Part shown: piece by piece, positions 1 through 13,501 of the stretch
Layout: each line of letters opens with the position of its first letter
Position numbering within the stretch: position 1 is the first letter of the stretch
Origin: an uncultured Alcaligenaceae bacterium
Lineage (GTDB): Bacteria > Planctomycetota > Planctomycetia > Gemmatales > Gemmataceae
Assembly (NCBI GenBank): GCA_964471755.1
Contig: CAYYJM010000097.1
Coordinates: forward strand, 1-14,565
Reading direction: 5' to 3'
Length of the DNA stretch: 14,565 nt
Notes under the pieces: generated by a model
What the model was told of the DNA's origin: nothing
Database searches by the model: none
What the model saw: only the letters and a program-made list of their open reading frames with translations
Program-made: the position numbers and the translations under genes

Positions 1-18
1 CGATGAAGAAGTCAGCGA

Positions 19-3000
19 TCAGGGCTCGCTGAGGATCGACGCGAAATCGATGTCCGTCCGAGAGTGCGGCGTGAATTGATCGGTGGCCGTCATCTGGCGG
101 TAGGCGTCCTTGCTGGCACTGCTGAGGTACTCCAACTGCGTCAGGAGGAGGTGAACTCGTTCGTGGTAGAAGATCACGTCCTCACCGCCTGGATGGCTGA
201 GGATCTCCTGACCTTCGAGGGCCTCCTCGGCCAGTTGCTGGAGTGCCTCACCCGCAGAGCTGTTCGGCCGCTCCAGAACGACCAGTTCCTGGACCGCGAC
301 GACACCACTGGACTGGTTCGCCGGCCGGCGCGGAGTGGCCTGCAGGTCTGGTTCGGCCTTCTGAAGGCAGACTTCCACCTCGCCCAGGCGGAGGCTGTTC
401 GAGGTCGTCTGCTGCAAGAACAGGTCGGCGACGCTGGTCTCGGCCAGGTGACCGTTCGCGAAGCGACTGGCCACCTCTAGCAAGCTGTCCTGCACTCCGC
501 GCAGGGGCGTGTTGGAGAGACAGACATTCACCAGGGCCTGGTATTTCTCGCGGATCATGGCCTCGATCTGGTGGTCCAGTTCGAGCAACTGGTCGGGGCC
601 GATCTCAGCGACGATCTTCTCCAGGGCCTCGCTCAGACTCTTGCAGCCTCCGGGCAGGAGGATGCGACCCGCTTCCGGACGCAGGCCGGTCCCCTGGGCG
701 CTGAAGTTGGCCGCGACCCGGCCGGGATGGCTGCTACTGATCACCGGCGTGCCCAGCGCTTCGAGGCTGCGCAGCAGCTCTCCGAGGCGGACTCGACAGA
801 AGTTGACCTCACGGAGTTCGTCGGAAAGATGGCCGCGCAGGGCCAGGAACGTCTGGGAGATCCGGTGCAAGATCAGGCTCTGCAAGCGCACCTTGGGATA
901 GGCACGCAGGATGGTGATCAGCTGATCGGGAGTGTAGTTGAGCTGCTTGCCACGACCGGCCAGGATCTCCTGGAGGGTGTTGTAGCCGTTCTTCGCCTGG
1001 AGGTCAAAATCCTTGCCGAGCGGTTCGTGGTGTTGCAGGATCTGTTCCAGCTGTGCCAGCAGTTGCCGGATGGCTTCCTCGGCCCCGGCCAGGCGGAACT
1101 CCGGCTCCTCCAGCAGGCGGACGGCGATCTCGGTCAGTTTCTGGCTCCACTCGTTCATCAACGACTCGGCCACCGTACGCAGGTAGGTGTCGAAGAGACT
1201 CGACTGGACGTGGAGAGTCTCCTCGCTCGGTTTGCCGAGCAGGCGTTCGAGTTCCTCGACCACCGGCTGCAGTTCGTCGGGCGGGATGTCTGCGGCCGTC
1301 ACCTGGCCCCAGCGTTTGGCCGGGACCGAAGACGCGGCGCGCAGCTGGCGAACCAGGGGCTCGACCACGGCCAGGAGTGCCGTTTCCGGGTCCTTGCCGA
1401 CCTGCTCACGCAACCGATCCTGAAGGCGTTCGAGGAAGGACTCGACCCCGAGATCGCGACGCTGCCATTGTTCCTTGACGACGCTCGTGACGGCTCCGAG
1501 GATCGGCTTGCTATCCTTGCTCATCCAGCGCACGACCAGTTGCATGCACAGGTGGCGAGCGGCCTCGCGGAGCAGTTCACGGCGCGGCCAGGAAAGCCGG
1601 TGCAGGCCGAAGGTCTGAGCGTAGAGTCCGCGTTCGTTCCAGGGCGGACCCGGCAAGCCGGCCCGGCCCAGATCGGCGACCCGACCCAGCGGCGTGCCCA
1701 GATCGCGGAACAGCATCTGGCCGGTCATGTCCTGCAGCTCGCGCGTGCGGACTTCCTCACTCTCGTCCGGCAACGGTAAGAGGATGGTCCGGACGAAGGG
1801 CGGTTCGCCATCGGAGAGGGGAGTTTCGCGTTCGTGGTAGCGGCCGGTGAAGACCGTTCCCGGTGTGGCGAAGTAGCGCAATTCCGTGAGGGCGGCAAAG
1901 GTGTTGCTCCGACGCAGGCGCTCGTCCCAGTTCTCGGGTCCGGGCCGGCCGCGCCGGGAATCGGGAACGAGGAGAACGGCGACGATGTCGGGTTGCTCAA
2001 ACCCGCGCTGTCGGATCAAGGAGCGAAGGACGTAGGCCAGATCGAGAAACATGCCCGAGCCGGTTCCGCCGGCCAGGTTGGCGATCAGGTAGACGCGGGG
2101 CCGATTGGTGCGCAGCCCACAGCCGGTTTCGCTCGCGGCTCGTTGCAGGGCGGCCGGGTCCAGGATGGCGTCCAGCTCGGCGGCCAGGCGGTGAAGGATG
2201 AGCCGGTAATTGTCGCAGAAGGCGAGCCGGCCCAGGGCACGGACGCCGGTGGTCACCTGCGAGCGCGGGATGCGATAGAGCATCTGCTGCGGAATCCACG
2301 TCTCCAGGCTCGGCCGACCTTCGCGCGGTTTGAGGTAGTGGCTGGGCCGATTGAGCGGAGCCAGGAGGACCTCGTTGCTGGACAGGGCCGGCCCGGACTT
2401 GCCCTGGGTCGCCGTCCGGGTGACATCCGGATCGGTGTCGAGCAGAAGAAGCTTCAAGCTGGGGAGGGCGTCGAGGCCACCGAACGACTCGACGAGCCGC
2501 TCACGCAGGCGGCGCAGGATGCCCAGTCCGCTCTGACCCAGACCGATGACCAGGCCGGGGAACAGACAGCCGTCGCCCTTGATCTCTGGCACGGGCTTGC
2601 GCGGTTGATTCCCCGCGCTGCCCGTCAGGGGGGCAGATCGGTGAGCGGCGGTCGCCTGCGCCTCGACGCTCCGCAGTGGGTGGGTGGTCCCCGGGCCGGA
2701 GTCGGGCGGAGAGGACGGACGGTTCGCGCCTGCGATTCGTGTCGAGTCGCTCGGCACGATGGCTGCGGGCTCCGGTCGTGATTCCGCCAGTGTGCCCGTG
2801 GTGGGGACTTCCGAACGAAGCGAGGCCGACGGCTCTCCTTCCTTCAGAAGCTGGACCATTTCCATGCAGGTAGGGAAACGATCCGCTGGCGTCTTGGCGA
2901 GTGCCCGCAGGATGATCGGTTGCTCCCACGAAGGCAGCGTCGCGACGTTCGGCTGACCCTGGAGGTGTTGCAGGATCAACTGGCGGATGTTCGAGCCGGA

Positions 3001-3648
3001 GAAAGGACGCTGGCCGGTGAGCAGTTCCTGGTAGCAGATCGCCAGGCTGTACTGATCGCTGTGTCGGCTGACGATGCCGTCGAACGTTTCGGGAGCGGCG
3101 TAGACGGGCGTGATGCCGCCGGTGACCTTGGTTTCGAGCCCTTCGAGATCCTTGACCAGGCCGAAGTCCGCCACCTTGACGTGGTTGTGGACGAGGAAGA
3201 GATTCTGTGGCTTGATGTCCAGGTGCTGCAACTGGTACAGGCCGTTCATCAGATCGAGGGCCTCGGCCGTCTCCGCCAGATAGCCGAGCAGTTCGTCGCG
3301 GGGGATGCCGGGCAGTCCCTGAGCGCGGCACTCCTTGAAGCGGTCCCAGAGGTTGCGATCGGCCAACTCCATGACGATGAGGAGCTGGCCGTTGATGATG
3401 TCGTAGCGTTCCAGCGACAGGATGTAGGGATGGCGAACGGTCTTGACGCGCGCGAGGGCCTTGAGTTCCTGCTCGGCGCGTTCACCGTCGTCGGTACTCT
3501 GGAGGTCGCCGTAGACGAACTTGATGGCCTTGTGCAGACCGCCGGGGGCCTCGCACTTCCAGACCTCGCCAAAGCCGCCGCCGCCCAGTCGCTCGATGAG
3601 GCGATAGCCAGGAAGCGGTTCGGCGTTGAATTCCAGGCGGGCCGTCAT
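19..3648 (-). CDS. Multidomain protein: N-terminal Hanks-type Ser/Thr protein kinase, Pro/Ser-rich linker, tubulin/FtsZ-superfamily GTPase-like domain, ~500-aa alpha-helical C-terminal region
   Basis: 1209-aa ORF, ATG start at 3648-3646 preceded by GGAGAG SD 8 nt upstream. Kinase motifs: GGGGFGEV (G-loop), AIKF (VAIK Lys), HLDIKPQN (catalytic loop), DFG, AAPE. Tubulin/FtsZ motifs: VIGLGQSGLGIL (T1-like Gly loop, aa ~366-378) and LIANLAGGTGSGMFLDLAYVLR (tubulin signature GGGTGSG plus H4-like helix, aa ~521-542). No internal stops; codon usage consistent with neighbours. Confidence 0.85.
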   Translation of the reverse strand: MTARLEFNAEPLPGYRLIERLGGGGFGEVWKCEAPGGLHKAIKFVYGDLQSTDDGERAEQELKALARVKTVRHPYILSLERYDIINGQLLIVMELADRNLWDRFKECRAQGLPGIPRDELLGYLAETAEALDLMNGLYQLQHLDIKPQNLFLVHNHVKVADFGLVKDLEGLETKVTGGITPVYAAPETFDGIVSRHSDQYSLAICYQELLTGQRPFSGSNIRQLILQHLQGQPNVATLPSWEQPIILRALAKTPADRFPTCMEMVQLLKEGEPSASLRSEVPTTGTLAESRPEPAAIVPSDSTRIAGANRPSSPPDSGPGTTHPLRSVEAQATAAHRSAPLTGSAGNQPRKPVPEIKGDGCLFPGLVIGLGQSGLGILRRLRERLVESFGGLDALPSLKLLLLDTDPDVTRTATQGKSGPALSSNEVLLAPLNRPSHYLKPREGRPSLETWIPQQMLYRIPRSQVTTGVRALGRLAFCDNYRLILHRLAAELDAILDPAALQRAASETGCGLRTNRPRVYLIANLAGGTGSGMFLDLAYVLRSLIRQRGFEQPDIVAVLLVPDSRRGRPGPENWDERLRRSNTFAALTELRYFATPGTVFTGRYHERETPLSDGEPPFVRTILLPLPDESEEVRTRELQDMTGQMLFRDLGTPLGRVADLGRAGLPGPPWNERGLYAQTFGLHRLSWPRRELLREAARHLCMQLVVRWMSKDSKPILGAVTSVVKEQWQRRDLGVESFLERLQDRLREQVGKDPETALLAVVEPLVRQLRAASSVPAKRWGQVTAADIPPDELQPVVEELERLLGKPSEETLHVQSSLFDTYLRTVAESLMNEWSQKLTEIAVRLLEEPEFRLAGAEEAIRQLLAQLEQILQHHEPLGKDFDLQAKNGYNTLQEILAGRGKQLNYTPDQLITILRAYPKVRLQSLILHRISQTFLALRGHLSDELREVNFCRVRLGELLRSLEALGTPVISSSHPGRVAANFSAQGTGLRPEAGRILLPGGCKSLSEALEKIVAEIGPDQLLELDHQIEAMIREKYQALVNVCLSNTPLRGVQDSLLEVASRFANGHLAETSVADLFLQQTTSNSLRLGEVEVCLQKAEPDLQATPRRPANQSSGVVAVQELVVLERPNSSAGEALQQLAEEALEGQEILSHPGGEDVIFYHERVHLLLTQLEYLSSASKDAYRQMTATDQFTPHSRTDIDFASILSEP
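1549..2565 (-). other. Tubulin/FtsZ-like GTPase domain (aa ~362-700 of the 19..3648 protein)
   Basis: T1-like GLGQSG loop and exact tubulin signature motif AGGTGSGM followed by a helix resembling tubulin H4; domain boundaries approximate. Confidence 0.65.
2839..3606 (-). other. Ser/Thr protein kinase catalytic domain (aa ~15-270 of the 19..3648 protein)
   Basis: All Hanks subdomain motifs present in order (GxGxxG, K of AIK, HxDxKPxN, DFG, APE). Confidence 0.85.
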
Positions 3649-3656
3649 GAGGCCGG

Positions 3657-3662
3657 CTCTCC
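3657..3662 (-). promoter_or_regulatory. Shine-Dalgarno-like GGAGAG for kinase/tubulin-like gene
   Basis: Reverse complement of ctctcc at 3657-3662 gives GGAGAG 8 nt upstream of ATG (3648). Confidence 0.4.
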
Positions 3663-3796
3663 AGGTTCAGGTAGCACGACTAGCCCGGGACGACGGACCG
3701 GGGGCGTGAAAGACTCGCGCAACTATAGGTCGCGGTTGAGACGGCCGCAAATTCAGGCCAGCGAGAAAGTCCCCCGGCGAGCGACAGACAGATACA

Positions 3797-4954
3797 ATGG
3801 CAGCAATCCGGAGGGACCGTGTCGTGACTCTGTACGCGCTGTCGATCAAGCAACCGTGGGCCGCCCTGCTCGTGCAGGGCCGCAAGACGATCGAGGTGCG
3901 CCGCTGGACCACGCGCCGGCGGGGGCTGGTCCTGATCCACGCCGCCCGGGTGCCGGACGCGCGGCCGGAAGGCTGGCGGCACGTCGGCCCGGACCTGGAG
4001 TCGGTCGCGCGCCTCAACGGCGGCATCCTCGGCGTGGCCGTCCTTCGCGACGTACTGACCTACCGCACGTCGGCCGGGTTCGTGGCGGACCAGGCGAAGC
4101 ACTTCAACGAACCGGGCTGGTTCGAGGAATCGGGCCTGTACGGACTGGTGTTCGCGCAGGCGGCACGGGTGCCGTTCTATCCGTTCACGGCACAGGTGCG
4201 GTTCTGCCGGGTCGAGGGATTTCCGATGGCGAGCCTGCCGACTGAGTTCCGCGCCCTGGCCGCCGTCGCGGATCGCAGGACGGGGAGCCGGCTGCTGGTG
4301 AGCGTTCGCTCGGCGGCCGAGGCGCGCGCGGCGATCGCCGGCGGCTGTGATCTGCTCGACGCCAAGGAGCCGACTGCCGGGCCGCTGGGTGCCGTCACGC
4401 CGGCGGTCCTGGCGGACATCCTGGCCGAGGCCGGTGGCGTGCCCGTCAGCGCCGCCCTGGGGGAATTGCCATCGTCCGGCCCGCTGCTGGGCGTGCCGAC
4501 CGGGGTGACGTACGTCAAGATCGGCCTGGCCGGCTGGGGCCAGCGCGACTGGCGACGCCGCCTGGCCGAGGTGCGGTCGCCGCGTCTGGTGGTCGCCGCG
4601 TATGCCGATCATGTGCGAGCCGGTTCGCCGACGCCGGAAGCGCTGCTGGAGGCGGCCATCGACCTGCAGGCGGCCGCGTTTCTGATCGACACCTGGACGA
4701 AGGATGGTGGCGACCTGCTCGGAGCCGTGGGCCGGGGTCGGCTGGCGGCCCTCGTCGCACGGGCGCGATCCGGCGCGATGCCGATCGCGCTGGCCGGATC
4801 GCTGACCGCCCCGACGATCGCGGCCCTGGGCTTCCTGGCACCGGACTGGTTCGCCGTGCGCGGCGCGGCGTGCGAGGGTGGACGGGGCGGCGTGGTTTCC
4901 GCCGAGCGGGTGCGCGATCTGACCCGGTTGCTGCACGGCGACACGGAGACGTAG
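3797..4954 (+). CDS. Fusion protein: N-terminal ASCH (PUA-like) domain + C-terminal MfnB-like (DUF556/COG1891, (5-formylfuran-3-yl)methyl phosphate synthase family) TIM-barrel aldolase domain
   Basis: ASCH-like N-terminus: LYALSIKQPWAALLVQGRKTIEVRRW. C-terminal half aligns motif-by-motif to archaeal MfnB: LLVSVRSAAEARAAIAGGCDLLDAKEPTAGPLGA (Schiff-base Lys region DxK), YVKIGLAG, VVAAYADHVRAG, ALAGSL, VRGAACEGGRG. Alternative start GTG at 3824 is in frame and has a GGAGG SD 8 nt upstream; the ATG at 3797 lacks an SD. Confidence 0.8.
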   Translation: MAAIRRDRVVTLYALSIKQPWAALLVQGRKTIEVRRWTTRRRGLVLIHAARVPDARPEGWRHVGPDLESVARLNGGILGVAVLRDVLTYRTSAGFVADQAKHFNEPGWFEESGLYGLVFAQAARVPFYPFTAQVRFCRVEGFPMASLPTEFRALAAVADRRTGSRLLVSVRSAAEARAAIAGGCDLLDAKEPTAGPLGAVTPAVLADILAEAGGVPVSAALGELPSSGPLLGVPTGVTYVKIGLAGWGQRDWRRRLAEVRSPRLVVAAYADHVRAGSPTPEALLEAAIDLQAAAFLIDTWTKDGGDLLGAVGRGRLAALVARARSGAMPIALAGSLTAPTIAALGFLAPDWFAVRGAACEGGRGGVVSAERVRDLTRLLHGDTET

Positions 4955-4972
4955 CCCCTCCGCACCGCTCGC

Positions 4973-6061
4973 TCAGGCCGTCGCCGGGGTCTTCCATCGG
5001 AGCCGATACTGTGCCGGCAGGACGTAGAGCCAGAGCAGGAGGACGGCTCCGGCCGCGAACATCAGGACGCTGCCGTACGCCTCGAAGCCGACCGGCCGGA
5101 CGTCGGCCCGGAGCAACTCGTTGAGCGAGCGATGGATGGCGTAGCCCATCATCATCACCGCCATCACCTGGCCGTCGCGTGTCTTGAACGGCGAGTAGGC
5201 CAGCAGCAGCAGGAACAGCAGGAACATGCTGACCGTCTCGTACAGCTGCGTCGGATGCAGGCCGAGGCTGCCGGGAACGCAGACGACCGGAGCCGGCTGA
5301 CCACGCACCGTCAGTGTCAGCGTCCGCTGATCGCGCGGCCAGAGACGCGGATCGAACAGGGCTCGGGTCAGTTCGTCCACGCTGCGGACGTCGCGGTCGC
5401 CGACCTTCTCGATGATCTGCCCGGAACGCAGACCGGCGGCCTGATCGATGCGGACGCCGCCGGTCACTTGCTGTTCTGGCGGAGCGACCGTGAAGCCGGC
5501 CGCGGTCTGGATGCCGGTGCCGATGAGTTCCTGCGTGGCCGGGGCTCCGAGCGGAAACGACACGGCCAGGACGGGAGCCTCGACGGCGGGCACCTGGCCA
5601 TAGCAGCAGCCGTTGCAGAAGCAGCCGATCCGGCCCAGAGCGATGCCCAGGACCAGGGCGGGAGCGAGAACGTCGGCCACCTTGCCCGTGGTGATGCCGT
5701 GCTTGCGCAGCACGAACACGTAGTGGACCAGGTAGCCGAGGAAGCCGCCGATCAGCGAGCCGTAGAGGATGATGCCGCCGTCCCAGATACGCGGCAGCTT
5801 GTAGAGGAAGTCCCAGACGTCGGCGACGTGATCCTGCATGAGCAGGTAGGAGATCCGCGCCCCGAGCAGACCGCCGATGAACAGGTAGATGGTCAGATCC
5901 TGGATGAATTCCTTCTTGATGCCGGCCTTCTCGGCCCGCCGACCGGCCAGCCAGGAACAGAGGAGAAAGGCGATGAAGAGCATGACCCCGAAGCCGTAGA
6001 TCGGGACGCCATCGGGGAACGTCTCGCTCTTGATCGGGATGCGGAAGAGGACCGGGTACAT
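4973..6061 (-). CDS. lgt: Prolipoprotein diacylglyceryl transferase (Lgt) with extended periplasmic insertion
   Basis: 362 aa. N-terminal Lgt pattern (YGFGVMLFIAF...GARISYLL), signature GRIGCFCNGCCYG (Lgt G-x-GN-x-NGE-like loop), HPTQLYE signature, C-terminal TM helices. ~110 aa between the glycine loop and HPTQLYE versus ~45 aa in E. coli Lgt. Confidence 0.85.
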   Translation of the reverse strand: MYPVLFRIPIKSETFPDGVPIYGFGVMLFIAFLLCSWLAGRRAEKAGIKKEFIQDLTIYLFIGGLLGARISYLLMQDHVADVWDFLYKLPRIWDGGIILYGSLIGGFLGYLVHYVFVLRKHGITTGKVADVLAPALVLGIALGRIGCFCNGCCYGQVPAVEAPVLAVSFPLGAPATQELIGTGIQTAAGFTVAPPEQQVTGGVRIDQAAGLRSGQIIEKVGDRDVRSVDELTRALFDPRLWPRDQRTLTLTVRGQPAPVVCVPGSLGLHPTQLYETVSMFLLFLLLLAYSPFKTRDGQVMAVMMMGYAIHRSLNELLRADVRPVGFEAYGSVLMFAAGAVLLLWLYVLPAQYRLRWKTPATA

Positions 6062-6300: not shown

Positions 6301-7404
6301 TCACCCGATCTCGACCACCGCCTTGCCCAGGACCTCCCATCGTGGCGTGACACCCAGGCCGGGAGACGTACTCGCGGCCAGCCGACCATTCTGTCTCCGG
6401 GGCGCGCCCTCGGCGTTGGAGACGGTAACGTAACTGTTGAAGTCCGTCGAGGTGAACAGGAACTCCGGCGGCGTGCTGTGAGCCAGGTGCGCGATCGCTG
6501 CCGTGACGATGTCACCGCCCCAGCTGTCCTCCAGCGTCATGGCCAGGCCGAGCGAGACGCACAGATCGCGAGCCTGTCGTGCCTTCGTCAGCCCGCCGAA
6601 CTTGCTGATCTTGATGTTGACCACGTCCATCGCCCGGTCGGCATGGCCGCGCAGCAGCACGTCCACCGAATCGATGTTCTCGTCGAGGACGAATGGATGA
6701 TCCGTGTGACGCCGTACGGTCAGGCACTCCTCGTACGTCCGGCACGGCTGCTCGATGTACACGTCCACGTCGCGCACCGCTCGGACGACTCGCAGGGCCT
6801 CGTGCATCAGCCAGCCGGTGTTGGCGTCGGCGACGAGCCGATCACCGGGCTGTAACTTCGCGGCCACCTGGTGAATGCGCTGGACATCCACGTCCGGGTC
6901 GCCGCCGACCTTGAGCTGAAAGCGGCGGTAGCCCTCGGCCCGGTAGCCAGCGACACGCTCGGCCATCGCCTCGGGAGCCTCCTGCGAGATGGCTCGATAG
7001 AGACCGAAATCCTCGCCGTAGCGGCCGCCGAGCAGGACACAGACCGGCTGACCGGTCGCCTGGCCGAGCAGATCCCAGCAGGCCATGTCGAGGCCGGACT
7101 TGACGTAGGCATGCCCCTGGAGGGCGGCGTCCATCCGGCGATTGAGTTTGCCGAGCTGGGTGGGATCTTCGCCGAGCAGGTGCGGCCCGAGTTCGCGCAG
7201 ACCGGCCCGCACCCCGGCGGCGTAGGCCGGCAGGTAGAACGGGCCAAGCGGACAGACCTCGCCATGACCGACGAGGCCGGTGTCCGTCTCGACGGCGATG
7301 ACGGTGCTGTCGAAGACGGTGATGGCCTTGCCGCCGGACCACTTGTAGCTCCCCTCGGCCAGGGGCAACTCGACACGGTAGGCACGGATACGGCTGATCT
7401 TCAT
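6301..7404 (-). CDS. Enolase-superfamily enzyme, mandelate racemase/muconate lactonizing enzyme (MR/MLE) family (racemase/epimerase/dehydratase; exact substrate unknown)
   Basis: 368 aa by the ORF track (GTG at 7407, then ATG at 7404). Metal ligands in canonical MR/MLE spacing: DANTGW, IEQPC, LDENI. Conserved [13 protein letters not shown] motif (catalytic Lys at end of 6th strand). Second-strand motif FQLKVGG. Start overlaps hflK stop (GTGATG). Confidence 0.85.
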
Positions 7405-8348
7405 CACGGCTTCTCCATCCTCGGCAGCAGATCGTCGATCAGGCCGAGTTGGCCCGTCTCCTGCAACTGGCGTAGCACACGCGTGCGCTCCTCACGCCAG
7501 AGTTGCTCCAGGTAATTCGGATTCTTCACGATCGCCTCGACCAGCACGGCGACGCGGGCCGCAAACCGCTCGGCGTTCCGGCGAGCCAGTTCACGCTGCG
7601 TGTAAGCGTAGCTCGCGGCCGATTTCTCGATCCGCTGGGCCTCCGCGTGGGCGGCCTCGACCTGAGAGAACTGCTCCTGCCGCGCTCGCGTCTCCTGCGT
7701 GTGGATGTTCGCCTGGGCGCGCGAGACGCTGTCGAACGCCTGCTTGACCTGCTCCGGCGGAGCCAGGTGGACGACGCGCACATCGATCACCGCAATCCCC
7801 AGTCGATACGGATCGAGCCGACTGGCCAGATCGCCGACGAGGAAGGTCGGCAGCGTGACCTTGCCATCAAGCAGAACGTCATCGACGTTCCGCCCCGCGA
7901 CCCATCCGGCCAGGCTCGACTCGGTAACCCGACCCAGAAGCGGCTCGACCCGCTGGCGTGCGAGGACGTAGTCCTCCAGGCCGTCCTCTGGCACCTTGAA
8001 CGAGACGACGACGCGGACATCGATCAGGTTGTGATCACCGGTGAGCAGCTGTCCCGGTGGATTCGCCGACTCGCCGCGACGCCGGGCGGCCTCCCGGGCC
8101 TCCTCGGTGTTCAGGTCTGGATCGAAGCCGACAGCGAGGGTCTGGATGCGATCGACCGGCACGCGATCGACCTGATCGATGCCCCACGGCCAGCCGATGC
8201 GGAGGCCCGGTCCCGGCTTGAACGGCAGGAACGCACCGAATCGGCGAACGACGGCCCGCTCGCCCGGCCGCACCTCGACGATGCCGGTCAGCAGCCAGCC
8301 GACCAGGACGACGCCGAGCAGGAGGAGGAAGATTCGGCGCACGCTCAC
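7404..8348 (-). CDS. hflK: HflK-like SPFH/band-7 membrane protein
   Basis: 314 aa. N-terminal TM helix ([15 protein letters not shown]) then [16 protein letters not shown]...[13 protein letters not shown] and [39 protein letters not shown], matching E. coli HflK core (ERGVVTRFGK...; LLDVNFQAARPPEEVKAAFDDAIAARENEQQYIREAE). GTG start at 8348 overlaps hflC stop by 4 nt. Confidence 0.85.
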
Positions 8349-9322
8349 GACCCGCCTTTCTTGATCGGCTCCGGCGCGGGCGGCGTCGGCGGCTCGGTCA
8401 GCGTCTTGAAGCGTTTGGTCGAGAGCAGCAGGACCGACTTGCCGGTCGAGAGGAGGCTCTTGAGGTCTTCGAGTTCCTTGAGGAAGGCGTAGAACTCGGG
8501 TCGGCGGAGCTGCGTCTCGTTGAGGATACGGTCGGCGGTGGCATCGGCCTTGCCGCGAGCGGCGATGGCCTGGCCCTCGGCGTCGGCCTTGAGCTTGCCG
8601 ACTTCCAGTTCGGTCTCGCTGCGGATGTTCGCGGCCAGGCGTTCGCCGCGGCTCTCGTACTCGGCCGCCTTGCGATCGCGTTCGCTGATGATCCGCTCGA
8701 AGATGGCCGGCCGAACCGCGGGCGGATGGTTCGACCGCCGGAGCCGGACATCGACGACCTCGATGCCGTACTCGGTCCTGGCTCGCTCGCGCAGTCCGGG
8801 GCCGCCGGCCGATGGCTGATCGAGCAGCGTCTGGCGAAGGCGATCGCGTTCGCGATCGACCTTGCCGGGTTCGGTGCTGATGAGGTCGGCGAGTTCCATC
8901 CGGCCGATGGCGGCACCGAGTGCGTTGTTGATGTCACGATCGAGCAGGGCCTGGGCTCCGGTGACGGTGCCGACCTTGCGGATAAAGCGATCGACGTCGT
9001 CGCGGGTGGCGATCCGCCAGCAGACGTAGGCGTCGATGGTGAGGGTCTGATCGATGGTGCCGCGCTCCCGATCACGGGTGAGCAGCTCGGCTCCGGGCAG
9101 GTCGAGGTACTGCAGTCGGCGGTCGATGCGCTGGACGCTCTCGATGGGCCAGGGCCATTTCAGGTGGAGGCCGGCGTCGCTGGACTCGCTCCCGTCGTAG
9201 GTCGCGACGTGAGCGCCGAACTGTGTGCGATAGACGAACTCGCCGGCGTCCACGGTGAACAGCGACGAGCGCACCAGGGCGATGAGGAGAATGAGGCCGA
9301 AGATTCCGAGTAGCGTTCGCAT
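8345..9322 (-). CDS. hflC: HflC-like SPFH/band-7 membrane protein
   Basis: 325 aa. TM helix (LLGIFGLILLIALV) then FTVDAGEFVYRTQFGA...GLHLKWPWPIESV, GIEVVDVRLRRSNHPPAV, and C-terminal RPEFYAFLKELE, matching E. coli HflC (FVVKEGERGITLRFGK; GIEVVDVRIKQINLP; DPDFYAFIRSL). GAGGG SD 8 nt upstream of ATG. Confidence 0.85.
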   Translation of the reverse strand: MRTLLGIFGLILLIALVRSSLFTVDAGEFVYRTQFGAHVATYDGSESSDAGLHLKWPWPIESVQRIDRRLQYLDLPGAELLTRDRERGTIDQTLTIDAYVCWRIATRDDVDRFIRKVGTVTGAQALLDRDINNALGAAIGRMELADLISTEPGKVDRERDRLRQTLLDQPSAGGPGLRERARTEYGIEVVDVRLRRSNHPPAVRPAIFERIISERDRKAAEYESRGERLAANIRSETELEVGKLKADAEGQAIAARGKADATADRILNETQLRRPEFYAFLKELEDLKSLLSTGKSVLLLSTKRFKTLTEPPTPPAPEPIKKGGS

Positions 9323-9334
9323 GGACAGATTCCC

Positions 9335-10039
9335 TCACGCGATCCACAAATCGCTGCACGCCTGCTCGCAGCTCTGCTCCAGATTCAACGGCACAACCTG
9401 ATCCTCGCTCAACCACAGCGGCAGCGTCGGCAGCGGTTGACCGACGTTCAGGGCGTGCGACCAGGCTTCCAGCAGTGTCCGCTTGCCGCGCCGGACCCAT
9501 CGACACGACGCGGCGTAAATATCCGGGGGCGGATCGCCGTGCGACGGGTCAGCGTGCCCGAGGAAGGCGAGCAACTCGACGTACAGGTTGAACTGCCGCA
9601 CGGTCACCAGATCGACGATGCTCACGGCGACGCCCTTCTGGAGCAGAGCGGCACACTTGGCGACGAAGACGTTGCGATGCTCGGGTCGGTCCAGGTTCGC
9701 GGGGCTGACGATCTCGATGGCGGCGACCAGAAGCCGGCTGCGGGTAGCGTCGAACACACGCACGCCATACTCGTCGTAGATGGGCAGCGTCGTCTCGACG
9801 CACAGACTGGGGGGCGTCGGTGCCCAGTCTGCCGCGCTGGTGTCGGTCTCATCGACCGGCTCGACCTGCGAGATGGCGTTCTCCCGGTGGAACCCGGAAT
9901 GCACCCGTGGCTCCGCGACGTGGCCAGACGGAAGTCGTTTCCGCAACTGCTGGACGATGACCGCAGGCCAGCCTCCAAAGAAGCCCTCCCACGAAGCGAT
10001 CGTGTCCACCGGCGGTCGGAAGTGATCGCGTAGCGGCAT
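9335..10039 (-). CDS. DUF4058 / Uma2-like (PD-(D/E)XK-fold) family protein
   Basis: 234 aa. Core block LLVAAIEIVSPANLDRPEHRNVFVAKCAALLQKGVAVSIVDLVTV resembles the DUF4058/Uma2 consensus (D...IEVLSP.NK...gR..Y..K......g..L.EIDLL). Strong GGAGGAG SD 9 nt upstream of ATG, located inside the 3' end of the ATPase gene; ATG lies 3 nt after the ATPase stop. Confidence 0.6.
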   Translation of the reverse strand: MPLRDHFRPPVDTIASWEGFFGGWPAVIVQQLRKRLPSGHVAEPRVHSGFHRENAISQVEPVDETDTSAADWAPTPPSLCVETTLPIYDEYGVRVFDATRSRLLVAAIEIVSPANLDRPEHRNVFVAKCAALLQKGVAVSIVDLVTVRQFNLYVELLAFLGHADPSHGDPPPDIYAASCRWVRRGKRTLLEAWSHALNVGQPLPTLPLWLSEDQVVPLNLEQSCEQACSDLWIA

Positions 10040-10042
10040 GGC

Positions 10043-13000
10043 TCACGGCTCCTCCGGCCGACGCGGCAACGACGGCATCACCGGCCGACGATCGAACGAG
10101 TCACCGCCCGGCAGCAGGCCCTTGCGCTGCTCGCCCAGGATCATCCAGAGTTGCAGCCAGCCCGGCAGGGCCACGTCGTCGATCAGAAACTTCTCGCGCA
10201 AGGCCAGGGCCGACGCGATCGCCTCGGACGCCAGTCGGAACTCCGTCAGGTACGCCTGCTGCTCCAGTCGATGCCGACGAGCCTCCTGCAACCACGACCA
10301 CGCCGCCTCCGGCTTCTCTCCGCCATCGACTCGAGCCCCGGCGGCCAGGAACAGGCCAACCTCGCTCGTCCACGATAGTGTCGATCGACTGTCATCGCGA
10401 CCGAAAAAGACCGTCTGCCGAGCCCGGGCCAGTCGCTCCTTCTCGTAGCTCTGCACCACGGCCTCGCTCACCCGCCGCAGCGAGCGGCCAAACTGGTCGG
10501 CCAGGTTGCGCGTCCGGGCGGCCTCCGCCTCGTTCTTCCGACGGTCGGCCCGCTCCATCGCCACGGCCACTCGATGGTACGCGCCAACCACCTCCGGCGG
10601 CGGATGCAGATCGTGCAGCGCCAGCCCCGTCACCTCCAGGCCAAGACCCGGCGAGCCAAACTCCGCCAGCCGGCCCTGAAGCCGGGTCAGGGCTTCGCCC
10701 TGGAACTCGCGACGATCCTGTGTCAGCAGACTCTCGAACGACCGACCAGCAACCAGCTCGCGGAAGACCGCCTCGGCACTGCCACGAACGACCGCCTCCG
10801 GATCGCCCACGTCGAACAGGTAGACACGCGGCTCCGTGATCCGGTAACGGATGGCCGCCTGGACCTCGATCAGGTTGCCGTCGCCCGTGATCATGACGGC
10901 CTCGTCCGGCAGCAGACGAATGCCCTCGCCGGAATGACCACTACTCCACGAACGGCCGTCGGCCAGGCCCCCCTCGGGGCGATCGACCCGGTAGCCGATC
11001 GCCACCGAGCGGATGCGATCGGGCTGCACCCGACGAACCGTCTCGATCGGCCAGGGCCAGCGCCAGTGCAGGCCCGGCGACAGGTCGGCGACCGGCTTGC
11101 CGAAACGCTGCACGATGCCGACCTCGTCGGACTGGATCGCGGTCAGACCCCAGAGCGGATAGATGACCAGCAGAAGCAGACCCAGCGTCGCCAGGATCGG
11201 CCGCCAGTGGTGCGTCACCCAGTGCAGGCCCTCTTCGAGGTTGAGGTACTTCTCCGTCCAGTCATTGACACCGGTCAGCCAGTGGCGGAAGCCGGCGTAC
11301 GTCCGGCTCTCCGGCTTCTCGAACCAGAGCAGCCGCATCGCGTTGAGCAGCACCGCGAGCGAGCCGAGTTGGTGGTAGAGGACGGCGGCCAGCGGCGACT
11401 GCTCGTACCAGGCCGCCGGAGCGAACAGCGGCCAGAGCCAGGAGGTCAGGACGACGCCGACGACGTTGACGACGATCGCGAACCAGAAGATGTTCTGGCC
11501 GATGATGGCGACCGTCTGCCGGGACAGCCGCACGAGCAGCGGCAGGTGACGGAGCGGATCACCCATGCAGACGACATCGCCGGTCTCGGCGGCGATGTCA
11601 GTGCCGGTGCCGCCGATGGCCAGGCCGACCGTGGCACGGGCCAGGGCCGGGGCGTCGTTGATGCCATCGCCGACCATCGCGACGCGCTTGCCCTCGGCCT
11701 CCCACGCCGCGACGAACTCGGCCTTCTGCGTGGGGAGAAGTTCGGCATGAACCTCGGCCAGGCCGAGCTGATCGGCGACGTTCCGGGCGACGGCAGCGCG
11801 GTCGCCGGTTAGCATGGCGACGCGGCCGATGCCCAGGCCGCGCAGTTCGGAGAGAACGTCGCTCGCCTCGTCGCGGACCCGGTCGCGGACGCCGAGGACG
11901 GCGATGACGTGCAGATCGCCAGGAATGCCAGGAGCCGGCTCACTCGTGGAGGCACCGCCGGGCTGGGCCTGGATCTGGGCCGACGTGGTCGGCTCGGCGA
12001 TGCTGCCCCGTGCCAGGAGCAGGGCCGTCTGACCGGCGGCGTCGAGTTCCCCCAGGGTCTTCAGGACCGCCTCGGGAAGAGCGACACCGAGTTCCTCCAG
12101 GAGCCGACGATTGCCGACGAGCAGGGTCGCCTCGCCAGCGACGGCCAGGATGCCGAGACCGGGATACGCCTGGAAGCGTTCGACCGTCGGCAGATCGAGG
12201 CCGCGCTTGCGCGCCTCGCCGACGAGCAGTTCGGCGAGAAGATGCTCGCTGCGCTGCTCGGCCGTCGCCGCCCAGGCGAGGAGTTCGGTTTCGGAATGCC
12301 CGCCCACCGGGACGATGCGGGCGAGTTCGAGCCGGCCCGCCGTCAGGGTGCCGGTCTTGTCGAAGGCGAAGGCATCGACCGTGGCGAGGCGTTCGAGGGC
12401 GGCCCCGCTCTTGATCAGGATGCCGGTGCCGGCGAGCCGTCCCAGCGCGGCGATGACGGCCGCTGGCGTCGCCAGGATCAGGGCACACGGGCAGGCGACG
12501 ACCAGGACCGACAGGGCCGGATAGGCGGCGATGCGGATCGCCTGCATCAGGGTGAAGCGCAGGCCCTCGCCGGGTCGGGTCCAGCCGCTCCAGACGGCGT
12601 AGACGCCGACGAGAAACGTCACCAGGGCCAGGCCGAGAACGATCGGCAGGAACCAGCGTGCGAGCCGGTCGGCGGTGCGTTCCAGTGGGGCCTTGTTCTG
12701 CAAGGCCCGGGCGGTCCACTCGACGACCTGGCCGGCGACGGTATGCTCGGCGACCCGGCGGGCCTCGATCGTCAGGGCACCGGTCTGGTTGAGGCAACCG
12801 GCCAGGATCTCGTCGCCGGGACCGCGATCGACCGGCAGACTCTCGCCGGTCAGGGCGCTGGTATCGACGGACGATCGACCGTCACGGACGACGCCATCGC
12901 AGGGAATCCGACCGCCCGGCTTGACGACGACCACGTCGCCGACCTGAAGCTCGGCAATGAGGATGCGCTCCTCCTGCCCGTCGCGCAGACGCCAGCAGCG

Positions 13001-13501
13001 GCGCGGGAAGACCTCGGCGAGCTGGCGGATCGCATGCTGGGTTCGCTCGAAGGTGACACTCTCCAGACACTCACCGAGCATGCCGATGAAGACGATCTCG
13101 GCGGCGACGAGCGGTTCTTGCAGCAGGATGGCGGCGATGCAGGCGAGGGCCAGGGCGAGATCGGCTCCGAGTCGGCCCTGCAAGAGCGAGTCGATGGAGC
13201 CATAGAGGGCGCGAGCGCCGCCGAGGATGGCGGCGAGCAGAGCGAGACGGTAGCCGGCGTAGGTGTTGGGCCAGCTCGGCAGACCCAGGCCGAAGCCGTT
13301 GAACCTGGCGGCGACGTAGACCCACAGGTCGGCGACGATGAGCAGACCGATGAGGGCCGTCAGCAGGTAGAGCGTAAGACGGCTCTCCTGCTCCAACCGC
13401 GAATCAGCGTAGGAAATCTCGCGGTGCATGACAGATCGACCAGGAGGGAGAATCGGATCGGGCTCGACTGTCAGGCTACGGGCGATGGCGAAGTCAGTCA
13501 A
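10043..13501 (-). CDS. P1B-type (heavy-metal, CPC-motif) P-type ATPase fused in frame to an extra TM helix and a C-terminal HflK-like SPFH/band-7 domain
   Basis: 1152-aa uninterrupted ORF. ATPase motifs: TGES (A-domain), ACPCAL (TM6 CPC), DKTGTLT (phosphorylation site), SEHLLA (HP-like), MLTGD, MVGDGINDAPAL, final TM pair ending LLNAMRLL (aa ~670-725). Then linker, TM helix HWRPILATLGLLLLVIYPLW (aa ~765-784) and SPFH domain: EVGIVQRFGKPVADLSPGLHWRWPWPIETV ... GLEVTGLALHDLHPPPEVVGAYHRVAVAMERADRRKNEAEAAR (HflK-like). No N-terminal CxxC metal-binding domain. Start is TTG per the ORF track; an alternative ATG sits at aa 25 (nt 13429). Confidence 0.85.
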   Translation of the reverse strand: MTDFAIARSLTVEPDPILPPGRSVMHREISYADSRLEQESRLTLYLLTALIGLLIVADLWVYVAARFNGFGLGLPSWPNTYAGYRLALLAAILGGARALYGSIDSLLQGRLGADLALALACIAAILLQEPLVAAEIVFIGMLGECLESVTFERTQHAIRQLAEVFPRRCWRLRDGQEERILIAELQVGDVVVVKPGGRIPCDGVVRDGRSSVDTSALTGESLPVDRGPGDEILAGCLNQTGALTIEARRVAEHTVAGQVVEWTARALQNKAPLERTADRLARWFLPIVLGLALVTFLVGVYAVWSGWTRPGEGLRFTLMQAIRIAAYPALSVLVVACPCALILATPAAVIAALGRLAGTGILIKSGAALERLATVDAFAFDKTGTLTAGRLELARIVPVGGHSETELLAWAATAEQRSEHLLAELLVGEARKRGLDLPTVERFQAYPGLGILAVAGEATLLVGNRRLLEELGVALPEAVLKTLGELDAAGQTALLLARGSIAEPTTSAQIQAQPGGASTSEPAPGIPGDLHVIAVLGVRDRVRDEASDVLSELRGLGIGRVAMLTGDRAAVARNVADQLGLAEVHAELLPTQKAEFVAAWEAEGKRVAMVGDGINDAPALARATVGLAIGGTGTDIAAETGDVVCMGDPLRHLPLLVRLSRQTVAIIGQNIFWFAIVVNVVGVVLTSWLWPLFAPAAWYEQSPLAAVLYHQLGSLAVLLNAMRLLWFEKPESRTYAGFRHWLTGVNDWTEKYLNLEEGLHWVTHHWRPILATLGLLLLVIYPLWGLTAIQSDEVGIVQRFGKPVADLSPGLHWRWPWPIETVRRVQPDRIRSVAIGYRVDRPEGGLADGRSWSSGHSGEGIRLLPDEAVMITGDGNLIEVQAAIRYRITEPRVYLFDVGDPEAVVRGSAEAVFRELVAGRSFESLLTQDRREFQGEALTRLQGRLAEFGSPGLGLEVTGLALHDLHPPPEVVGAYHRVAVAMERADRRKNEAEAARTRNLADQFGRSLRRVSEAVVQSYEKERLARARQTVFFGRDDSRSTLSWTSEVGLFLAAGARVDGGEKPEAAWSWLQEARRHRLEQQAYLTEFRLASEAIASALALREKFLIDDVALPGWLQLWMILGEQRKGLLPGGDSFDRRPVMPSLPRRPEEP
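10046..11224 (-). other. C-terminal TM helix + SPFH/band-7 (HflK-like) domain (aa ~760-1152) of the fusion protein
   Basis: Shares the WPWPIE(S/T)V block with the adjacent HflC-like protein and the PPE(E/Q)V..A(F/Y) block with HflK. Confidence 0.75.
11312..13501 (-). other. P1B-ATPase core (aa 1-~730) of the fusion protein
   Basis: Complete set of P-type ATPase motifs; see the CDS entry. Confidence 0.8.

Follow-up and report, generated by a model that had tools for sequence, protein, structure and literature searches.

How Planctomycetes, which lack FtsZ, divide and organise their cells is an open question, and the abundant, conserved fusion of a Ser/Thr kinase to an FtsZ-like protein found in these bacteria is an obvious candidate for a part in both. 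One gene of this kind lies at 19..3648 on the minus strand of the stretch of DNA analysed here (the window, 14,565 nucleotides, contig CAYYJM010000097.1). The locus raises the question of whether the kinase and the FtsZ-like part are truly one protein, to which family the latter belongs, and how the two could act on each other. A first reading of this DNA from its letters alone (the original prediction) had described a single polypeptide of 1209 residues containing a Hanks kinase, a tubulin/FtsZ-superfamily GTPase domain and a helical tail, and had not recognised this architecture as a described family. We conclude that the protein is almost certainly a member of the FtsZl1 family (Pfam Tubulin_2) of the planctomycete, Gemmataceae-type kind, with the N-terminal Hanks kinase that is typical of this lineage. 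As an explanation of the whole, an FtsZl1-family kinase gated by GTP-dependent self-association accounts best for the data, and we regard it as rather likely.

The coding sequence is complete and runs without interruption through 1209 codons, from an ATG to a stop codon at 19–21, as given by the list of open reading frames (ORFs) and the translation; the Pfam matches and more than 100 full-length homologues of like architecture bear it out. The original prediction had the extent of the gene right, and the gene is on the minus strand. A plus-strand reading of 19–3648 was rejected, its translation being riddled with stops, and the many overlapping plus-strand 'ORFs' are usual at a G+C content of 64–68%. 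Alignments with homologues begin at residue 1, and the start codon is therefore right. From the N- to the C-terminus, the protein consists of the Ser/Thr kinase, a linker, the FtsZl1 (Tubulin_2) domain, a helical stalk and a C-terminal domain. Residues 15–257 match Pfam Pkinase with an E-value of 2.3e-30 (2878..3606, on the minus strand like all features of this gene given below), and residues 366–705 (1534..2553) match PF13809, Tubulin_2 ('Tubulin like'), with an E-value of 3.4e-41. This second match scores 142.1 bits against a cutoff of 27, spans profile positions 1–355 of 356, that is the full length, and is far beyond chance. No segment of the protein qualifies as transmembrane (the top Kyte-Doolittle window of 19 residues scores 1.54 and lies at strand S1/loop T1), and the protein is predicted from its sequence to be cytoplasmic. 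Mean identity to homologues is 80% in the kinase, the most conserved part of the protein, 60% in the tubulin-like domain, 45% in the stalk, 39% (38.6%) in the C-terminal domain and 29% in the linker.

The reality of the fusion was judged from its relatives. A search with residues 360–1209 as query returned more than 100 homologues of 1100–1240 residues with 44–59% identity over the whole query, nearly all of them annotated with Pkinase and Tubulin_2 and several named by NCBI 'tubulin-like doman-containing protein [Gemmataceae bacterium]'. A survey limited to one genome per species gave 431 loci encoding relatives. The best 80 of these 431 belong to Gemmatales, Gemmataceae or Fimbriiglobus, apart from a few records with other taxon labels, and the closest relatives being from Gemmataceae/Gemmatales agrees with the planctomycete origin originally proposed. 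The gene is present in one or two copies per genome, with several genomes carrying two, and its distribution across Gemmatales looks like vertical inheritance. The kinase immediately precedes the tubulin-like domain in each of the 83 non-redundant loci, 78 of which have the two in frame; among the 150 best cluster representatives from a library of 1.84 billion proteins, 103 contain the kinase and most of the others are fragments.

It could be argued that an adjacent kinase gene and FtsZl1 gene have been joined by an assembly or frameshift error, a possibility for which the original prediction had named consistently split orthologues as the sign to look for. Some database entries of 780–930 residues do contain Tubulin_2 alone, and a separate kinase gene precedes the Tubulin_2 gene in two loci, L005 and L006. 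However, the two parts share one frame in those 78 of 83 loci, which come from many independent assemblies, and the ORF at 19–3648 is itself uninterrupted. The five out-of-frame loci (L005, L006, L008, L031 and L075) all come from 'MFD…/contig_' metagenome-assembled genomes (MAGs), whose contig naming is typical of long-read assemblers; their split always falls within the low-complexity linker, and other MAGs of the series also show frame changes between the tubulin domain and the tail. Orthologues are thus not consistently split, and the artefact is effectively refuted, with a probability that we consider negligible. Frame changes within the gene, in the linker or where the tubulin domain passes into the tail, were also observed in the MFD-series MAGs L011, L021, L027, L030, L039 and L043. 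We read the frame changes of these MAGs as indel errors, and it is because of them that the databases appear to hold separate kinase and Tubulin_2 genes.

The FtsZ-like part was assigned by its fold. An AlphaFold2 model of residues 355–720, built from 120 sequences and confident (predicted local distance difference test, pLDDT, of 86; predicted template-modelling score, pTM, of 0.83), has a six-stranded Rossmann-like sheet (S1–S6) with its helices, which is the N-terminal nucleotide-binding fold of tubulin/FtsZ, and only helices after S6; an insert of about 40 residues after S3 is poorly ordered, with low pLDDT. When this model was submitted to Foldseek, the top 50 matches were all FtsZ, tubulin or TubZ, with a probability of 1.00. 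The structural alignments cover about 200–230 residues at 11–20% identity, with query-normalised TM-scores of 0.33–0.44, and this short alignment and range of scores fit an N-terminal nucleotide-binding domain without the C-terminal activation domain. Another Rossmann fold of the GxGxxG type for residues 366–705, the competing assignment considered in the original prediction, was rejected on the strength of the same 50 matches; profile search and structure prediction both place the domain in the tubulin/FtsZ superfamily.

The nucleotide-binding loops can be followed along the domain. In the T1 loop GLGQSG (residues 369–374, 2527..2544; family consensus GxGQxG), the glycines G369, G371 and G374 are 95–100% conserved, and the T2-like DTD (residues 404–406, 2431..2439), comparable to the 'NTD' of FtsZ, is invariant in the alignments. 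The T4 signature GGTGSGM (residues 527–533, 2050..2070) keeps G527, G530 and G532 in at least 99% of homologues. The tubulin-like T1 loop and GGTGSGM signature of the original prediction are thus well founded, and its three motifs, VIGLGQSGLG, GGTGSGM and NTFAALTE, are located where it had put them, at residues 367, 527 and 582, respectively. At the end of the family-specific insert, the conserved segment TTGVRALGRLA (residues 466–476, 2221..2253) keeps R470 and G473-R474-L475 unchanged in no fewer than 97% of 120 representatives, and we infer from its position after strand S3 that it corresponds to T3. The stretch LYRIPRSQVTTGVRALGRLAF (residues 457–477, 2218–2280) is nearly invariant in the family; the model is at its least confident in the first part of it, where the pLDDT falls below 50, and the whole is probably a mobile T3-like nucleotide-sensing loop. 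The conserved motif NTFAALTE (residues 582–589, 1882..1905) belongs to helix H5, with N582, A585, L587 and E589 invariant. In the 120 representatives, a more divergent set, the strictly conserved positions gather in T1, the T3-like segment, T4 and the H5 Asn, a pattern consistent with selection acting on nucleotide binding.

We then considered the leading idea of the original prediction, namely that the protein forms GTP-hydrolysing protofilaments of the FtsZ/tubulin type that replace FtsZ in division, with the kinase reporting the state of the polymer. The fold does belong to the tubulin/FtsZ superfamily, Planctomycetota are without FtsZ (PMC11032199), and Makarova & Koonin favoured a novel mode of filament formation for FtsZl1 over none at all (PMC2875224). 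In contrast, neither a T7 loop nor a C-terminal beta domain is present in the AlphaFold2 model of residues 355–720, and the 120 representatives have no conserved acidic motif in common beyond strand S6; indeed, almost nothing past S6 is conserved in them, which is why we consider a T7-like acidic loop to be absent. PF00091 (Tubulin/FtsZ) is not detected at threshold, and FtsZ_C and Tubulin_C give no Pfam match in the protein, so that by PF00091, C-terminal domain and T7 alike it does not group with canonical FtsZ and tubulin. In addition, Tubulin_2 proteins were given a separate evolutionary history by Santana-Molina 2023 (PMC9871819). As far as the model goes, canonical polymer-type GTPase activation is here without its structural prerequisites, and because these required elements are missing a canonical self-activating polymer is improbable.

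The original prediction had also failed to find a clean T7 loop, and in this it stands; its nearest candidate, NTFAALTE, was rejected, since this motif sits in the helix after strand S5, that is H5 (model residues 220–240). In tubulin, the same helix carries the '(P)YN(A/S)xL' motif. Comparison of the family profile by hhalign gave a short local T4-H4 match to human beta-tubulin with GGGTGSGM aligned (probability 51%) and an S1-T2 match to E. coli FtsZ (probability 5%), in which T1 aligned to VIGVGGGG and DTD to NTDAQAL. Because these matches are only short and local, they do not support any placement of H6, H7 or T7. Searches of PDB sequences, by phmmer with residues 361–1209 and with a 16-sequence profile of the tubulin domain, returned only BurrH repeats matching GGTGSG...QPDIV, which were rejected as spurious; sequence search by itself therefore fails to reach solved tubulins.

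The architecture has been on record since 2010, and this gene adds another member to it. The original prediction was therefore mistaken in regarding it as undescribed: it is the FtsZl1 of Makarova & Koonin 2010 (PMC2875224), and it also appears in PMC9871819 and PMC11032199. In defining FtsZl1, Makarova & Koonin noted the N-terminal kinase in Planctomycetes, could not confidently identify T6-H7/T7, with H5 as the last alignable element, and described an extended coiled coil followed by a helical C-terminal domain (PMC2875224). The missing T7 of the original prediction thus independently reproduces a published conclusion. The same architecture was noted by Santana-Molina 2023 (PMC9871819), and a 2024 survey of planctomycete Ser/Thr kinases found tubulin-like domains to be the commonest accessory domain among purely cytoplasmic kinases (PMC11032199).

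Feature by feature, the protein resembles FtsZl1 in its FtsZ-like nucleotide-binding domain with the T1 loop and a GGTGSG T4 loop, which is N-terminal in the family, in the family-specific inserts between T1 and T4, in the lack of a recognisable T6-H7/T7 and FtsZ/tubulin C-terminal domain, and, according to the AlphaFold2 model of the tail, in a long coiled-coil/helical region followed by a helical C-terminal domain. The N-terminal kinase (Pkinase, residues 15–257) is the mark of the planctomycete subgroup. Unlike typical FtsZl1 operons, the window and seven annotated relatives (six loci with DNA, L001, L003–L006 and L086, and the gene list of P0004) contain no vWA protein, divergent P-loop GTPase or OmpA-like protein. 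Of the operon features, which are frequent but not universal in the family, only the association with a kinase is found, through fusion and not through a neighbouring gene. From canonical FtsZ, tubulin, CetZ and TubZ, the protein differs in having no S7-S10 C-terminal domain and no T7 NxDxxD/E catalytic loop, in an insert of some 40 residues that follows S3, and in a helical tail of 500 residues instead of a short C-terminal peptide. What the present analysis adds to the published picture is a model-based confirmation of the tubulin/FtsZ fold without activation domain and T7 loop, evidence that constraint on the protein is strongest in its kinase, and a recurrent adjacency to scpA (see below), which is possibly a new lead.

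The tail was modelled separately. In the AlphaFold2 model of residues 700–1209, which is confident (pLDDT 88), helices 30, 45 and 58 residues long lead into a helical domain and an alpha/beta subdomain. The three long helices of 30–58 residues form the stalk (residues 706–965, 754..1533), which includes the invariant sequence FRLAGAEEA; the C-terminal helical domain (residues ~1005–1098) and the small alpha/beta subdomain (residues ~1120–1188) together occupy 22..636. The helical tail of about 500 residues that had been proposed is thus mostly helical, but not purely so, because of this small C-terminal subdomain. No solved relative of the C-terminal domain was found.

The kinase domain has every feature of a Hanks kinase: the G-loop GGGGFGEV, the VAIK Lys (K43), the alphaC Glu (E61), the catalytic loop HLDIKPQN (residues 142–149) with its Asp and Asn, DFG (residues 161–163) and APE (residues 185–187). 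All these catalytic motifs are invariant across 107 full-length homologues, and the domain is, as originally proposed, complete and to all appearance in its sequence active. The catalytic loop (3202–3225) reads HLD instead of HRD in 107 of the 107 homologues, which makes this a non-RD kinase. Non-RD kinases are often not regulated via activation-loop phosphorylation. After the kinase comes the low-complexity linker of the original prediction, rich in P, A, S, G and T (residues 270–355, 2584..2841); it is disordered, and its length in homologues ranges from 74 to 125 residues. A semi-conserved motif, DSxxGxTxx[LI]R (residues 316–326, 2671–2703), often follows TAxxR in the alignment and could be a phospho-acceptor or docking site.

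The linker and the kinase bear on the direction of the coupling. In a reverse arrangement, the kinase would control assembly by autophosphorylating the linker or the FtsZl1 module, or by phosphorylating neighbouring molecules, the assembly being the output and serving as a scaffold for membrane remodelling or division. We take this to be a serious rival of GTP gating, although on the whole an unlikely one; the two are not mutually exclusive and could coexist. In its favour, FtsZl1 came to light through kinases 'implicated in FtsZ phosphorylation' with which it is associated, and its operons often include a kinase (PMC2875224). The S/T-rich linker with its semi-conserved, possibly phospho-accepting motif points the same way, as does a PP2C phosphatase gene adjoining one homologue. 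Actinobacterial PknA and PknB are Hanks kinases that regulate FtsZ, a case to which PMC2875224 alludes indirectly. By analogy, reverse coupling would resemble the phosphorylation of FtsZ by kinases of this type, since in both cases a Hanks kinase is coupled to a tubulin-superfamily GTPase; there, however, the proteins are separate and the FtsZ canonical, whereas here they are fused and the partner is of the divergent FtsZl1 type. Two findings speak against the kinase driving assembly: its conservation far exceeds that of the presumed output module (80% versus 39–60% identity), and no polymerisation interface, be it T7 or the C-terminal domain, can be recognised. The phosphatase mentioned above is a PP2C Ser/Thr phosphatase encoded convergently, just downstream of the close homologue P0004 (genes at 1118–4810 and 4972–5733, respectively); it is possibly the cognate phosphatase, in a single case.

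For GTP gating itself, we tentatively propose the following mechanism, in which self-association controls the kinase. With T1, T2, the T3-like segment and T4 all retained, the FtsZl1 module would most likely bind GTP; without the C-terminal activation domain and T7, it could not polymerise head to tail and activate itself in the canonical FtsZ/tubulin manner. Instead, the FtsZl1 domain with its long helical stalk would self-associate in a GTP-dependent way and thereby gather or localise the flexibly tethered kinase domains, and this clustering would gate their trans-autophosphorylation and the phosphorylation of local substrates. The strong conservation of the kinase, unequalled elsewhere in the protein, makes it the probable output, with the module of GTP-binding domain and stalk as the probable input that regulates or localises it. 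The cellular arena is likely to be membrane or cell-cycle organisation in bacteria without FtsZ. ROCO/LRRK2 proteins are Roc GTPase-COR-kinase fusions, and the logic of the proposed mechanism would resemble theirs, a GTP-binding oligomerising module and a Ser/Thr kinase sharing one polypeptide. The analogy is functional only: the fold is that of tubulin/FtsZ versus their Ras-like P-loop, the domains come in the opposite order, and the proteins are not homologous.

Several points weigh against a kinase gated by GTP-dependent self-association. The trans-autophosphorylation step is weakened because the kinase is of the non-RD (HLD) type. Likeness to tubulin/FtsZ at the sequence level is confined to T1-T2 and T4, and the match of PF00091, a local one at T4-H4-S5, stays below threshold with 12.3 bits (cutoff 33). 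The evidence for GTP binding, for oligomerisation and for kinase activity consists of sequence and predicted structure, and the sequence is compatible with control in either direction, from GTP state to kinase or from kinase to assembly. Finally, a search of the available literature found no experimental study, biochemical or genetic, of any FtsZl1, Tubulin_2 or planctomycete kinase-fusion member.

Turning to the neighbourhood, the divergent gene at 3797..4954 (plus strand) encodes, according to Pfam, an ASCH domain and a 4-HFC-P synthase. An ASCH/4HFCP neighbour in the same divergent position is found in 42 of the 64 related loci with visible upstream sequence; this is conserved synteny and not a demonstrated functional partnership. 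In the window, ASCH and the MfnB-like 4-HFC-P synthase form one ORF of 385 residues (378 residues in the closest relative, L086, at 6708–7844), and they are two overlapping genes in L001 (8678–9810) and L005.

On the other side, the window ends 18 nucleotides past the stop codon of the kinase-FtsZl1 gene, and the downstream gene is seen in relatives only. In 12 of 53 relatives (11 of 52 loci plus the closest relative, L086), the gene for the SMC kleisin, scpA, follows directly on the same strand within 1 kb, mostly 30–180 nucleotides after the kinase-FtsZl1 gene and 48 nucleotides after it in L086. It is located at 11649–12389 in L086, 13695–14459 in L001 and 9666–10457 in L004, and is also downstream in L013, L015, L030, L033, L037, L040, L041, L043 and L059; in these scpA-adjacent relatives scpB is not beside scpA. 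The adjacency may be no more than synteny that has been kept, as the ASCH/4HFCP neighbour, presumably unrelated, is retained even more often. A bolder reading is that the kinase-FtsZl1 gene and scpA are an ancestral transcription unit in Gemmataceae, and that a GTP-gated kinase would connect chromosome condensation or segregation with budding division in the absence of FtsZ; we regard this as a long shot, and no mention of such a link was found in the cited literature on the family.

The neighbourhood also bears on the proposal that the protein is a nucleoside triphosphate-dependent component of a biological-conflict (anti-phage) system, with the kinase as sensor or effector. Kaur et al. 2020 placed tubulin-coiled-coil proteins of Firmicutes and Actinobacteria in GTPase/vWA (GAP1-N2/vWA) conflict systems (PMC7159879), and the PADLOC models mad6, PD-T4-6 and MkoA match the protein. 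However, these matches cover residues 14 to ~355, most of them ending by residue ~300, and thus concern the generic kinase domain; neither a full-length match nor partner genes were found for MADS MAD6, PD-T4-6 or Mokosh MkoA, and no neighbouring protein in the window matches a defence model. Partners of the vWA, GAP1-type GTPase, HSP70 and FNIII kinds are not seen in the seven annotated relatives, the housekeeping synteny is stable (ASCH/4HFCP in 42 of 64 loci, ScpA in 12 of 53), and apparent vertical inheritance across Gemmatales at one or two copies per genome is unlike a mobile defence island. We consequently judge a role in conflict very improbable.

A scan of positions 1–5200 for promoters and terminators found no promoter-like site. 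The sole terminator-like hairpin in these 5.2 kb (12–32, minus strand) overlaps the stop codon of the kinase-FtsZl1 gene and carries no weight, since one was found and 2.1 are expected by chance. The window's minus strand also carries lgt, a gene of the enolase superfamily, two for SPFH proteins, one for a DUF4058 protein and one for a P-type ATPase-SPFH fusion. The P-type ATPase (E1-E2 and HAD; 1152 residues, 10043–13501) has an SPFH/Band 7 domain at its C-terminus and is followed in the same direction by the DUF4058 gene (9335–10039) and by two SPFH paralogues (8345–9322 and 7404–8348) whose genes overlap by 4 nucleotides. It is unusual for an ion pump to be fused to SPFH in this way.

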